The notes beneath the pieces were generated by a model. The model was not told the DNA's origin. It was given only the letters and a program-made list of their open reading frames with translations, and searched no databases. Shown here piece after piece: positions 1,920-6,846 of a stretch of 21,440 nt of DNA (positions are counted from its first letter, which is position 1; every line of letters starts with the position of its first letter). Origin of the DNA: Promethearchaeota archaeon (GTDB lineage Archaea; Asgardarchaeota; Lokiarchaeia; Sigyniarchaeales; SOKP01). A program made the translations under genes and the position numbers. The stretch covers positions 1 through 21,440 of the forward strand of contig JBHLME010000077.1 of NCBI GenBank assembly GCA_048938445.1, in the 5' to 3' direction.

Positions 1920-3218
1920 GTGAAATCTTATAATATTAAATTATTAGAGAAATTAAATATGAATAATGATCAAAGAGAATCTGAAAAAGGGTATATCTCA
2001 AAAATAATTAAGTTGATAAATAATAATATTATAGGTGAGACTTCTGCCAGAGCAATCTCTTTACTCATGGGTTTGAATCGTAATTATCTCTCTGATAAAC
2101 AACTAAAAGAAGGTAAATATGAGCAATATACTAAATTTTTTACTTTAGCTACTAATTTTCTCTTACTTAGTCCTAATAGTTTAAATTTCAAATCTAATTC
2201 ACATTATAAGAAGTTCATAGATGGATCTATAGAAATCATCTTTCAAGAAATGGTCAGAAAAGGGATATATTCTAAAAATGAAATTTTAGATATTCAAATG
2301 ACTCAATTTATAGCTTTAATTTATACTCTTTATGCTATCACTAAAGCTATGATAAATAAGTATTCTAAAATTAGACTTGATGAATTGAAAACAGGGAAAA
2401 CAAAAAAATTCTTATATACGTTAAATAAGCTTAGTTTGGAGATCGGAGGTGTTGAAACACTTTCTCAAACTCTTAAATATGAAATGGTTATCACACCTGA
2501 AAAAATTGCCCTAATCAAATCTATCCTAGATAATAATAAATCTTATGCATTTGAAGAATGCACGTATGCTATAGATTTAATCGGAGAGATCCCAAGATTA
2601 AGATATAGTAATCGAGCTGTATATATAGGTTCAATATCTCATCCAGTATTAGAAAATTATTTTAGAGAAATGTGGTTAAATAAGAATATTTTCTCTAAAC
2701 ATGAAGTTGAATTTAATAAACCTATTAGTAATCATAGAATAGATAGCATTTTAGATATTAAAACTAACTTAGATTTAAAAAAACTATTAGAAATATCCTT
2801 AAATATTAATCTAGGAGACTATAATAAAATTTTTATTGATTATACTTTACCATCATTAATCTCTCTAAAACAATCGGGGGGTGTTCTTGACAAACTAAGT
2901 CCAGATAAGTATTATCTTGAAAATAATCGCTTATTATTCATTGTTTTCTATGGATATTATAATAATAAAATTTTTGATACCCTTAATGATCTCCTTAATT
3001 ATTTAAATATTCCTCATAAAAGCAATGTTCGATTTATTGATCTCATTGATTTTGCTAAATTGTTTGGTTTTAATACGGAAGATATTCAGATGCTAGAATA
3101 CATCAACCAAATAATTCAAAATGCTTTTTTAGGGGATGAAGAATCATTAAAACATCTAGAAAAGCTTTCTAATTCTGCATTATATAAGTTAAGAAAATTA
3201 GATAAAAGAAAAAAATGA
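1920..3218 (+). CDS. Hypothetical protein with possible HTH-like N-terminal segments and a C-terminal PD-(D/E)xK-like nuclease fold
   Basis: 432-aa ORF; the start may be the ATG at 1959. C-terminal pattern GSISHPVLE...HEVE...RIDSIL...IFIDYT...K. HTH-like segments SARAISLLMGLNRNYLS and TLNKLSLEIGGVETLS. Confidence 0.5.
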   Translation: MKSYNIKLLEKLNMNNDQRESEKGYISKIIKLINNNIIGETSARAISLLMGLNRNYLSDKQLKEGKYEQYTKFFTLATNFLLLSPNSLNFKSNSHYKKFIDGSIEIIFQEMVRKGIYSKNEILDIQMTQFIALIYTLYAITKAMINKYSKIRLDELKTGKTKKFLYTLNKLSLEIGGVETLSQTLKYEMVITPEKIALIKSILDNNKSYAFEECTYAIDLIGEIPRLRYSNRAVYIGSISHPVLENYFREMWLNKNIFSKHEVEFNKPISNHRIDSILDIKTNLDLKKLLEISLNINLGDYNKIFIDYTLPSLISLKQSGGVLDKLSPDKYYLENNRLLFIVFYGYYNNKIFDTLNDLLNYLNIPHKSNVRFIDLIDFAKLFGFNTEDIQMLEYINQIIQNAFLGDEESLKHLEKLSNSALYKLRKLDKRKK

Positions 3219-3443
3219 TAATTGTTAATTAAATTTTATTTTTATTAAAGTAAGTTATATATTGAGTGGTATTTCTTCCGATTTTTTATAAATTTTCAAC
3301 CATTAAAATTAAAATAGATTAAATTAGATTTGAAATATTCTAAGCATTTATTAGAGCTAAATATTTAAGTGATAAAGTATTCTTGACGTGATAAGGAAAA
3401 ATATAATATTAATATATTATAAATTTAGCCAGCGCCAGCGTAT

Positions 3444-3473
3444 AAAATTTATTATAATAATAAGTTTGCGCAA
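3444..3473 (+). other. tRNA intron 1 (30 nt) at position 10/11, relaxed bulge-helix-bulge (BHB)
   Basis: Central helix GCGT (3438-3441)/GCGC (3468-3471), bulges AT|A and AA|C, and a ~10-bp intron hairpin 3445-3454/3458-3467. Splicing here restores the T10-A25 D-stem pair. Confidence 0.8.
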
Positions 3474-3522
3474 CCGAGTAGTTAAGGAGGCGGCCTGCAG
3501 AGCCGTTATTCATGGGTGCAAA

Positions 3523-3554
3523 ATATAATTGGAATTTTGACAATTAGATGCAAA
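3523..3554 (+). other. tRNA intron 2 (32 nt) at position 59/60, BHB motif
   Basis: Outer helix ATGGG/CCCAT, central helix TGCA/TGCA, bulges AA|A and AA|T, inner helix TAATTG/CAATTA. Removal yields a 7-nt T loop. Confidence 0.88.
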
Positions 3555-3605
3555 TCCCATCGCTGGCTTCTTTATATTTACTAATTCATTCAAATACTAA
3601 CCATA

Positions 3606-5042
3606 GTGTTGCCATTGCTGAAAATATACAATAGTCTCACGTTCAAAAAGGAACCTTTCAAACCAATTACACCAAATGAGGTGTTAATGTATGTTTGCGG
3701 ACCGACTGTGTATGATAGTCCGCATCTAGGGCACGCAAAATCAGCAGTCACTTTTGACATAATTCGACGATACCTAAAATTCAAGGGCTTCAATGTTAAA
3801 ATGATAAAAAATTATACAGATATTGATGATAAAATAATTAATAGAGCAAATGAAAAAGGTATTGATTTCAAGGAGTTAGGAGAGAAATACATCAAAGAAT
3901 ATGAATCTATCATGGAATTGTTAAATATTGAAAAAGATGATAAAAATCCTCGAGCAACAGAAACGATAGATTTCATAATTACTTTAATTCTAGAATTAAT
4001 TAAAAAGAGTAATGCCTATGAAGAAAATGGTTCTGTTTATTTTTCAGTGAAATCATTTCCAGGATATAAAAAATTACTTCAAAATATTAAGGAAGAGGCA
4101 GAAGAGGAAGAATTAGATGATGAAAATAATGAATTAACTCAAGATAAGCATGATCGAAGGGATTTTGCACTTTGGAAAAAAGCAAAAGAAGGAGAGCCTT
4201 ATTGGGAGAGTCCTTGGGGAAATGGGCGACCTGGTTGGCATATTGAATGTTCTGCGATGGTTATTAATTATCTCGGAGAAACCATCGATATTCATGGAGG
4301 AGGACAAGACTTGAAATTCCCCCATCATAGGAATGAAATTTCTCAATCTGAAGCGTATACTGGCAAGAAATTTGCCAATTTTTTCATTCATAATGGATTC
4401 GTGAATGTTGATAATGAAAAAATGTCAAAGAGCCTTGGAAACTTTTTTCTAGTATCTGATGTAGCCAAAAAATATGATCCGATGGTTATAAGGTTCTTCC
4501 TATTATCTAGTCATTATAGAAAATCAATCAATTACTCATTGGATACAATGAATCAAGCTCAAAAAAACTATGAAAAAGTAATTAATACAATCCAGAGTAT
4601 TAAAGATCAAAAAGTAGAAGATGTAAAATTGGATGCGATTAAAGATTTAATTAATAGGATAGATGAGGCTCAGGAAAACATTATCCACGCAATGGATGAT
4701 GATTTTAATATGCCTGTTTCCATTGCTGAAATCATGACCTTATTAAAGGATTTAAATCGTGCCATTTTTGAAGAAAAAAGGTCAATTAATGAAACATTTA
4801 AGTCCAAGTTTTTTAATTTTATTGATAATATTGACCTTATATTTGGTTTATTCCCAAAAGCAGGAACTCTGAATAATAAAGAGTTTGGAAAGACTATTGA
4901 TGAGAAAGATAATGTAATCAATTCTTTACTAGATATTTTAAAAAATATCAGATCTAAACTGAGAGAAAGAAAAATTTATGACATAAGTGATGAGATTAGA
5001 GATAATTTAAGAGATTTAGGATTTAAAATAGATGATAAATGA
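3606..5042 (+). CDS. cysS: Cysteine--tRNA ligase (class I CysRS)
   Basis: YVCGPTVY, HLGH (HIGH motif), NYTDIDDKII, DFALWK, GRPGWHIECSAM, DIHGGGQDLKFPHH, KMSKSLGN and DDFN motifs. GTG start; a nearby TTG is also possible. Confidence 0.97.
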   Translation: MLPLLKIYNSLTFKKEPFKPITPNEVLMYVCGPTVYDSPHLGHAKSAVTFDIIRRYLKFKGFNVKMIKNYTDIDDKIINRANEKGIDFKELGEKYIKEYESIMELLNIEKDDKNPRATETIDFIITLILELIKKSNAYEENGSVYFSVKSFPGYKKLLQNIKEEAEEEELDDENNELTQDKHDRRDFALWKKAKEGEPYWESPWGNGRPGWHIECSAMVINYLGETIDIHGGGQDLKFPHHRNEISQSEAYTGKKFANFFIHNGFVNVDNEKMSKSLGNFFLVSDVAKKYDPMVIRFFLLSSHYRKSINYSLDTMNQAQKNYEKVINTIQSIKDQKVEDVKLDAIKDLINRIDEAQENIIHAMDDDFNMPVSIAEIMTLLKDLNRAIFEEKRSINETFKSKFFNFIDNIDLIFGLFPKAGTLNNKEFGKTIDEKDNVINSLLDILKNIRSKLRERKIYDISDEIRDNLRDLGFKIDDK

Positions 5043-5262: not shown

Positions 5263-6846
5263 ATGAAGATATTATACGTGAATCCTTCGCGACTGGAATC
5301 TGGACTTGATGCAATAATCAAAGCACAACCATTAAGTCTAATGTCTATAGCTGCGATGGTTCCAGACCATGATGCAAAATTAGTTGATTTCAAGATTAAA
5401 AACTATTCTGAGAAAAATTTTAATCGAATATTAAATAAATATGATGTCGTTGCCATTTCAAGCTTGACACCACAAATTCAGAGCGCTTTTGAGGTTGCAG
5501 AAATGGCTAAGAAAGCTGGGTCAACTACAATCCTCGGAGGATATCATCCAACTTTAGCACCAGAGTATGTTGCATCACATCCTGCCGTGGATTTTACAGT
5601 TCGCGGAGAAGGAGAACATACATTTAAAGAGATCATTGATTATATTGATCAAGATACTATTAAACTTGAAACCCTAAAGAAGATTAAGGGTATTTCATAT
5701 AAGAGAAAGGATGGGAATATCATTCACAACGCAGATAGACCTTTAGAATGCAATCTTGATAATTTCCCCATTCCTCGACGAGATTTAATTAATTATAAAG
5801 AATATCTATACTTAGGTAAACGCATAGTCCCCCTTGAATCTTCTCGAGGCTGCCCCCATTCCTGTAAATTCTGTTGTATAACAAAGATGTGGAAAGATCC
5901 ATCTCAAAATATCGTATATCGAACTAAAAGTGTCAATAAAGTAATGGAAGAAATCTACAATATTAATTTGAACAATGATTTTATCTTCTTTTGTGAAGAT
6001 AATTTTACTATCCAATTAAAACGTACCAAGAATATTTTAGAAACAATTATAAAATCAGGAATACCGAATAAAATCTATTTAAGTTGCCAATCTCGAATTG
6101 ACACCTTATATCGAAATCCATGGTTAATAGATCTCATGCACCAAGCAGGGATGAAACAGATTTTTCTGGGTATCGAATCCGTACATCAGCAGAGTCTTGA
6201 TGCAATGAATAAAAGAAATACAACTCCAGAAATGACACGAAAAGTTGTAAACATGTTGCATGATAGAGGCATGACAATATTTGGAGGAGTAATAATCGGA
6301 TATCCTGGTGAAAATAAAACAATGGTACGTCAGACCATTAACTTCGCTAAATCATTAGAATTAACCATAGTTCAATTCACGCCTATCACGGCTTTTCCTG
6401 GAACACCATTTTATGATGAGATGAAGATGGAAGGTAAGATTACAAGTTTTAATCCTAAGCATTACAATTTATTTAATACAATGATGGGAACAGATGATTT
6501 AACAAATAAAGAAATCTATCGATTAGTCGTTGAAGCTTATGGTGCTTTTTACTTGTACAATTTCGATTGGCTTAAAATGGTCATGAAACGTTTCTTAAAC
6601 CCATTTAGTAATTTCTTTTGGATGTCGCATAAAGCCACACGATTAGCCAGACAGGTTGTAAGAGGAGGCCTTCGGATGCTTCGCTCCCAAGGAATTACTG
6701 GTACAAATCTCTCTGAAGAATTAAAGCAAATCATTGCTAATGAAAAATTTGATTCATTCAACAAGGAAATTGAAGATCAAATAAAAAATGAACCTATTCC
6801 AATGCCTCAAAATGTAAAACCTGTTCCGGTTTTAGAGAATAAGTAA
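5263..6846 (+). CDS. Cobalamin-binding (class B) radical SAM enzyme, paralog 1
   Basis: B12-binding domain (DVVAISS, ILGGYHPT, RGEGE), SRGCPHSCKFC (CxxxCxxC), EDNF, LGIES, IIGYPGE and TAFPGTPFY. Confidence 0.9.
   Translation: MKILYVNPSRLESGLDAIIKAQPLSLMSIAAMVPDHDAKLVDFKIKNYSEKNFNRILNKYDVVAISSLTPQIQSAFEVAEMAKKAGSTTILGGYHPTLAPEYVASHPAVDFTVRGEGEHTFKEIIDYIDQDTIKLETLKKIKGISYKRKDGNIIHNADRPLECNLDNFPIPRRDLINYKEYLYLGKRIVPLESSRGCPHSCKFCCITKMWKDPSQNIVYRTKSVNKVMEEIYNINLNNDFIFFCEDNFTIQLKRTKNILETIIKSGIPNKIYLSCQSRIDTLYRNPWLIDLMHQAGMKQIFLGIESVHQQSLDAMNKRNTTPEMTRKVVNMLHDRGMTIFGGVIIGYPGENKTMVRQTINFAKSLELTIVQFTPITAFPGTPFYDEMKMEGKITSFNPKHYNLFNTMMGTDDLTNKEIYRLVVEAYGAFYLYNFDWLKMVMKRFLNPFSNFFWMSHKATRLARQVVRGGLRMLRSQGITGTNLSEELKQIIANEKFDSFNKEIEDQIKNEPIPMPQNVKPVPVLENK

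Follow-up and report, generated by a model that had tools for sequence, protein, structure and literature searches.

An intron is believed to persist in an archaeal tRNA gene only if the precursor is able to fold into a splice motif. In the canonical form of that motif, the bulge-helix-bulge (BHB), two 3-nt bulges on opposite strands flank a 4-bp helix, and each strand is cut behind the second nucleotide of its bulge. Non-canonically placed BHB introns of archaeal tRNA genes are known, as passages of two earlier accounts set out (PMC4090602, PMC4033280), and the main text of a preprint describes the tRNA genes of Asgard archaea as heavily, and often unannotatedly, interrupted (10.64898/2026.10.13.758758). 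A broad-specificity (alpha-beta)2 form of EndA, the archaeal splicing endonuclease, is reported for Asgard archaea in part of a further paper (PMC5829648). Introns of this class, found in Thermoproteales, DPANN and Asgard archaea together with a broad-specificity EndA, have their motif in common with both introns of the locus that we describe here. In the passages cited, that literature treats the intron and its exon flanks and does not mention a leader element that frees an exon strand. The word 'leader' has 0 occurrences in the main text of the preprint, whose Supplementary Note 3 deals with acceptor-stem and junction introns.

Where PMC4090602 and PMC4033280 speak of leaders, the passages cited concern split and permuted tRNAs only. 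According to the same passages, leader and trailer pair with each other and build the BHB in the split tRNAs of Nanoarchaeum equitans and the permuted tRNAs of Cyanidioschyzon merolae. Our locus, as we propose it to work, would resemble these cases in that sequence outside the mature tRNA builds the fold in which EndA cuts. Unlike the cases in those passages, the leader here copies one exon strand and would pair with the other, so that the BHB would lose a competitor; the gene is neither split nor permuted, its exons lying in order at a single locus, and the copy is complementary to the 3' acceptor strand, not to a trailer, and in the predicted fold does not itself form the BHB. Attenuators and riboswitches work through mutually exclusive helices and an anti-terminator logic. 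By analogy with them, two identical or similar strands would compete here for one partner, and the choice would set the outcome of processing; unlike them, the locus would involve no ligand or ribosome, and the outcome would be tRNA splicing rather than control of transcription or translation. Full-text literature searches, confined to main texts, returned no leader that copies one acceptor strand and sequesters the other, in keeping with the original prediction, whose author knew of no such description.

The window, as we call the whole stretch of 21,440 nucleotides analysed here, comes from an Asgard archaeal genome of 4.6 Mb in 256 contigs with 29.6% G+C. It holds a tRNA-Cys(GCA) gene in three exons with two BHB introns, preceded by a second copy of the 5' strand of its acceptor stem. 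We hold it to be probable, if well short of assured, that this leader copy is a cis-acting decoy in pre-tRNA-Cys, which resolves a conflict between the acceptor stem and a splice helix.

An interrupted tRNA-Cys gene and its leader

GCCAGCG stands twice in tandem on the plus strand, at 3428-3434 and 3434-3440, with G3434 common to both, and CGCTGGC at 3561-3567 is a perfect complement of either copy. The window contains three matches to GCCAGCG (3428+, 3434+ and 3561-), against 0.10 expected, and 0 of 100 dinucleotide-preserving shuffles reached three. The duplication and its complement, from which the original prediction had started, were thus confirmed by the sequence itself, by the motif count and by a repeat listing of the window, in which the tandem repeat of 6 nt appears along with the two inverted repeats that involve the 3' acceptor strand. 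In the leader, the complementarity reaches 8 nt: 3427-3434 can pair with 3561-3568, with A3427 opposite U3568. The T at 3568, right after the 3' acceptor strand, is the discriminator, U73. U73 is an identity element for CysRS.

Table 1. Features of the tRNA-Cys locus, with positions in the window.
Feature	Position	Strand	Basis or remark
Leader copy (probable decoy) GCCAGCG	3428..3434	+	last G = tRNA nt 1
Exon 1, tRNA nt 1-10 (GCCAGCG U8 A9 U10)	3434..3443	+	intron-less orthologs; ARAGORN on spliced sequence
Intron-1 helix H, 5' strand GCGU, tRNA nt 5-8	3438..3441	+	H 4/4 pairs
Intron 1, 30 nt, nt 10/11	3444..3473	+	BHB geometry
Exon 2, tRNA nt 11-59; anticodon GCA 3497-3499	3474..3522	+	
Intron 2, 32 nt, T-loop nt 59/60	3523..3554	+	fold; geometry read from sequence
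Exon 3, tRNA nt 60-73, ends with discriminator U73; CCA not encoded	3555..3568	+	
3' acceptor strand CGCTGGC, partner of true 5' strand and leader copy	3561..3567	+	
cysS (cysteinyl-tRNA synthetase)	3606..5042	+	PF01406, E 4e-125

We built the gene model through comparison with relatives (Table 1). In the raw window neither ARAGORN nor Rfam, at its gathering threshold, gives a tRNA, and ARAGORN makes no call when either intron alone stays in. The in-silico join of 3434-3443, 3474-3522 and 3555-3568 is 73 nt long, and ARAGORN calls it tRNA-Cys(gca), which bears out the earlier model of a tRNA-Cys gene with introns. Intron-less orthologs read GCCAGCGTATCCGAG across the exon 1 region and ATGGGTGCAAATCCCAT at the T-loop site of intron 2.

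The tRNA gene lies directly upstream of cysS, and this synteny is kept in the family. Orthologs of cysS begin ATG AAA AT; the window has CTG at that codon, and the possible start codons of its open frame, GTG 3606, TTG 3609 and TTG 3615, lie a few codons further upstream. On the other side of the tRNA gene, an upstream ORF of 432 aa (1920-3218) has no Pfam match at E <= 0.001. The sequence upstream of the tRNA gene is AT-rich, and by eye no confident TATA box or start site could be placed in it.

Both introns fit the BHB motif, with two 3-nt bulges, a 4-bp helix and a flanking helix. For intron 1, the central helix H pairs GCGU (3438-3441, nt 5-8) with GCGC (3468-3471) in 4/4 positions, the bulges are AUA (3442-3444) and AAC (3472-3474), and the inner helix h' joins 3445-3448 to 3464-3467 (AAAU/GUUU, 4/4). 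The outer helix is absent (1/4 pairs), which gives the form HBh'. Cutting after nt 10 yields the mature sequence seen in intron-less orthologs. Three of the bases in H, nt 5-7 (G5, C6 and G7), are acceptor stem bases in the cloverleaf, and on this overlap the original prediction was right. In relatives ACGC replaces GCGC, turning the U8-G pair into U8-A. For intron 2, the T-stem serves as outer helix, H joins the palindromic UGCA at 3517-3520 to UGCA at 3549-3552, and the bulges are AAA and AAU. The genome carries two genes of the EndA family (PF01974, 107 and 70 bits), a number consistent with an (alpha-beta)2 enzyme as judged from the gene complement. A separate stretch of the leader just before the copy, 3415-3426, could pair with the 5' half of intron 1 (3445-3456), the complementarity being 92% over 12 nt; this pairing is not clearly kept in relatives.

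The copy and the early intron in relatives and in this genome

We searched 41 relatives in a first stage and then all 135 genomes of the family, of which 87 gave a match at E <= 1e-5. The 105 loci recovered include 89 complete genes of this type, or 84 distinct genes once five duplicate loci had been merged. Among the 16 loci dropped, three end at a contig edge (L018, L032, L039), one has a 5' strand not fully paired with the 3' strand picked by the filter (L056), and twelve lack either a gene of this acceptor type or an anchor.

An early intron, at nt 9/10 or 10/11, is present in 12 of the 84 orthologs, and all 12 carry an exact 7/7 copy of their own 5' strand at a distance of 6 to 12 nt upstream. 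A D-loop intron (after nt 15) is found in nine orthologs, and 63 have no intron in the 5' part; the exact copy occurs in 0/9 and 0/63 of these, respectively. These 72 genes without an early intron, some of which have D-loop, anticodon, variable-region or T-loop introns, thus contain no exact copy, with 0.01 expected from shuffled leaders. Copy and intron are also found together in a 13th early-intron gene, whose sequence is divided between two contigs. Scanning metagenome contigs with a pattern that starts at tRNA nt 1, and so ignores the leader, gave at least 119 stretches, from which 80 loci were kept; among the matches listed there are five genuine early-intron genes, and the copy is present in 5/5. 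The homologs therefore bear out what the original prediction had supposed, that genes with this intron keep the duplication and genes without it lack it. As judged by these sequences, the link between copy and early intron across relatives is strict: an exact copy is present if and only if the central helix of an intron uses acceptor bases, which is the pattern expected of the proposed leader decoy. An assembly artefact, which the original prediction had named as a possible refutation, is excluded by the same arrangement in 12 other genome assemblies and five metagenome contigs.

Near-copies in the remaining genes without an early intron are distributed as expected by chance. We considered one of them, a 6/7 match at offset 13 in L019, as a relic copy and rejected it, shuffles giving 0.14 such cases. 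An order-wide search with a double-motif pattern in 154 genomes returned 22 places, of which 13 are tRNA-Cys leaders (in 13 genomes) and one is the L019 near-copy. Of the other eight, the four inspected (L106, L107, L119 and L124) are not tRNA-like, and the four in G029 were left out.

The early-intron genes fall into four layouts. In the tandem layout (offset 6, last G shared) we find eight genome genes, the split gene and four metagenome genes; the spacers TTC and AATT occur in one gene each; and a YCTTT spacer (CCTTT or TCTTT) occurs in two genome genes and one metagenome gene. The intron sequences differ between layouts. The intron position and helix originally predicted are exact for the tandem form, and this part stands; the spaced forms depart from it, with the intron at 9/10 and H on nt 4-7. 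In the AATT gene H has 2-3 of 4 pairs, depending on the cut chosen. The acceptor strands of that gene are GCCAGTG and CACTGGC, with U-A as pair 6:67, and its copy likewise reads GCCAGTG; this variant could be a fresh duplication rather than a compensatory change. When nine tandem-type loci are aligned, the six leader-copy columns are invariant, and 11 of the 18 columns just upstream vary. At that upstream rate, the chance of six invariant columns in a row is roughly 0.004, a figure to be read with the relatedness of the rows in mind.

A maximum likelihood tree of the neighboring CysRS, with 40 rows, shows the early-intron state dispersed among its branches; seven changes are needed, at least four of which are forced by well-supported branches, and the copy changes alongside every time. 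The four layouts, the acceptor variant, the invariant columns and this joint change may be read as signs that selection maintains the copy. Sister lineages on this tree have different layouts together with different upstream flanks. This pattern in the sequences points to the exchange of a cassette of promoter, leader, exon 1 and intron by recombination, as we infer. The association of copy and intron alone cannot separate function from a common mutational origin, since only 10 nt separate the two and they pass through inheritance and recombination together.

The orthologs have introns at up to five places (nt 9-11, the D-loop, the anticodon loop, the variable region and the T-loop at 59/60), with up to three introns in a single gene, in a set that includes L026, L011 and L094. 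The T-loop intron of the window is common to several relatives without the early intron. A U at position 55 is near-universal in tRNAs, and GG is usual in the D-loop. Most of the tRNA-Cys orthologs (L001-L105) have UGC, with G55, in the T-loop and AG in the D-loop (3517-3523 and 3477-3484 in the window). A rough regex count gave 50 orthologs with AG and UGC, three with GG and UUC, and some unclear; from the sequences, this looks like covariation of the 18:55 tertiary pair.

Within its own genome, the tRNA-Cys of the window is the only tRNA found with an intron this early and with such a copy. The intron-containing tRNAs of the genome listed by Rfam have the D-arm right after the acceptor strand and no early intron. 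A genome scan for an exact 7-mer with its copy and its reverse complement gave eight hits, with 0 in the control; seven lie outside tRNA genes, most of them in coding-looking repeats, and the tRNA-Cys is the only hit among tRNA-like loci. Of the 103 candidates from a second scan, which took the T-arm as its anchor, 21 allow more than one 5' strand. We considered tRNA-Ile(GAU) at C192:5538-5654 as a second decoy case and rejected it, because its predicted fold keeps the true stem and it shows no canonical BHB by the rule used. Its D-arm has a 43-nt insert that holds an acceptor-like GCGAGAG able to pair with the 3' strand.

Two further tRNA-Cys(GCA) genes were seen in the genome. One (6678-6749) belongs to a dense array at C215:6484-15106, where about 30 intron-less tRNA genes lie on both strands, unlike the interrupted tRNA genes elsewhere; the array may belong to a mobile element or a virus, or may stem from contamination, for which the genome has a rating of 8%. 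The other, at C111:27514-27622, has the acceptor strand GCCAAGG and one intron near the anticodon loop, and may mean that tRNA-Cys in this genome has more than one source. At the end of a contig, C108:40440-40558 combines an anticodon UCA with a long variable arm, a possible 9-bp acceptor and a 4-bp T-stem; about 30 nt of intervening sequence follow the acceptor. By its sequence it looks like an interrupted tRNA-Sec gene.

Predicted folds and explanations of the copy

With the leader, the minimum free energy fold of the window gene (-42.4 kcal/mol) contains the intron-1 helix as well as a pairing of 3428-3434 with 3561-3567; without it, the ordinary acceptor stem forms and the intron-1 helix does not (-37.6 kcal/mol). 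This is the difference that had been expected of folds with and without the leader. The effect is the same in 12/12 genome genes and in 5/5 metagenome genes among the matches listed, and nt 4-8 pair with the intron in the predicted fold with the leader. In ensembles for the 12 genes, the true acceptor stem has a mean probability of 0.98 when the leader is absent and of 0.01 when it is present, and the helix of copy and 3' strand has a probability of 0.91-1.00 with the leader. For the eight tandem genes and the TTC gene, H has a probability of about 0.01 (0.33 in one of the nine) without the leader and reaches 0.95-1.00 with it; the values for the window gene are 0.01 and 0.99. Adding 15 bases of native leader left the predicted fold unchanged. 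Shuffling the copy largely abolished the effect, with probabilities of 0.18 for H and 0.77 for the acceptor stem. In the YCTTT and AATT forms the ensembles do not predict the canonical H (probability 0.00-0.10), and the freed 5' strand pairs elsewhere in the intron instead.

We also removed intron 1 in silico and kept the leader. A clean return to the true stem is not predicted, and the copy still competes: the probability of the true stem is 0.11-0.58 in the tandem genes and 0.00-0.01 in the spaced genes. The switch proposed in the original prediction is therefore upheld in one half, the predicted freeing of nt 5-8 in the precursor, and not in the other, the predicted return of the true stem after splicing. 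Since the decoy still competes once the intron is gone, the switch back needs a factor beyond secondary-structure folding, and must rely on tertiary structure, RNase P capture or trimming.

The reading of the copy as a decoy, which we favor, draws on the gene anatomy, the link between copy and intron, the conservation of the copy and the predicted thermodynamics, the first three observed and the last computed. The BHB would need nt 4/5 to 7/8, in the acceptor strand, paired with a GCGC-like stretch at the 3' end of the intron, and in the cloverleaf the same acceptor bases would be occupied by the 3' acceptor strand. In the precursor, the leader copy would claim the 3' strand, and the two would make a stand-in for the acceptor helix that stacks on the T-arm, leaving the true 5' strand free to make the splice helix for EndA. 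After excision, the true stem would replace the decoy, and RNase P would then remove the leader. We infer, along with this order of steps and the switch back, that the leader is transcribed and that EndA needs the fold. Archaeal EndA recognises the BHB on its own, and the precursor might reach the BHB fold without help from the copy.

We think it unlikely that the copy is functional in another way, with the stand-in helix setting processing order or quality control rather than allowing BHB formation. It might, for example, block RNase P, CCA addition or CysRS on the unspliced precursor, or keep nucleases away from the free 3' strand for as long as the 5' strand is paired with the intron. Such a role can draw on the same evidence of conservation and association, the predicted stack of decoy helix and T-arm resembles an acceptor/T minihelix, and a decoy that competes after intron removal suits a timer better than a simple helper. 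However, such a role would not account for the restriction of the copy to genes in which the intron helix overlaps the acceptor strand. Introns at other positions also need ordered processing, yet the copy is found in 0/72 genes without an early intron, and the predicted rise of H from about 0.01 to about 0.99 is a more direct link.

More doubtful is the idea that the copy is a functionless by-product, in which one DNA event, for example a cassette transfer or a duplication or insertion where nt 7 and 8 meet, made both intron and copy, and the copy persists because it is young and tightly linked. Copy and intron are only 10 nt apart and always co-occur, the differing layouts and flanks of sister lineages on the CysRS tree suggest cassette replacement by recombination, and the difference between intron-less and spaced alleles could be a single indel of about 45 nt. 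But all 18 genes have kept the copy exact (7/7) despite divergence in their flanks, spacers and intron loops, four spacer layouts would require four similar accidents, and the other introns of these genes lack target-site-like flanking repeats. A neutral relic should also linger, yet no intron-less gene has an exact copy.

There is very little chance that the copy works as DNA, for example as an initiator or a promoter-proximal element outside the transcript. It does lie where promoter-proximal elements would lie, given a short leader, but it is absent from intron-less orthologs with the same gene order, its sequence follows that of the acceptor strand down to the GCCAGTG variant, its distance from the gene varies from 6 to 12 nt, and the region is otherwise AT-rich, with no other sign of a GC-rich promoter box. 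Finally, a chance repeat, a private replication-slippage duplicate or an assembly artefact, which the perfect, simple 6-nt tandem repeat of the window might suggest, is refuted by the comparative data and deserves practically no credence: none of the 100 shuffles reaches three matches, the arrangement recurs in the other assemblies and metagenome contigs, and, unlike a slippage duplicate, the copy in relatives can be separated by spacers of 3-5 nt, is conserved and occurs only with the early intron.

Introns beside the acceptor stem

That relatives keep the copy only with an intron near base 10 suggests, from sequence comparison, that the copy helps the splicing of that intron. If it acts as the decoy that we favor, the locus would be a simple sequence answer to a structural conflict, with a spare stem strand placed in the leader.

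A wider reading, which we offer tentatively and would stop short of calling probable, is that leader decoys are a general licensing device for acceptor-adjacent BHB introns, with a fixed maturation order, a mobile cassette and mutual dependence. Decoys would let BHB introns settle beside the acceptor stem, a place otherwise closed to them. RNase P would trim the precursor to the decoy helix, EndA and ligase would excise the intron, the true stem would displace the decoy, and a second RNase P cut would follow. The decoy would pass from lineage to lineage together with exon 1, the intron and the promoter, in a single cassette that recombines. If this reading is true, an intron without a decoy would be unspliceable and a decoy without an intron would poison the acceptor stem, and intron and decoy would always be gained and lost together because each depends on the other.

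The locus would provide a concrete, testable example of an RNA switch that exists only in the precursor during tRNA maturation. Its arrangement accounts for the failure of standard tRNA finders to detect the gene, and it offers a rule for annotation, in that an exact copy of the acceptor strand upstream flags a hidden early intron. It would also bear on how introns are gained and retained in the closest archaeal relatives of eukaryotes.
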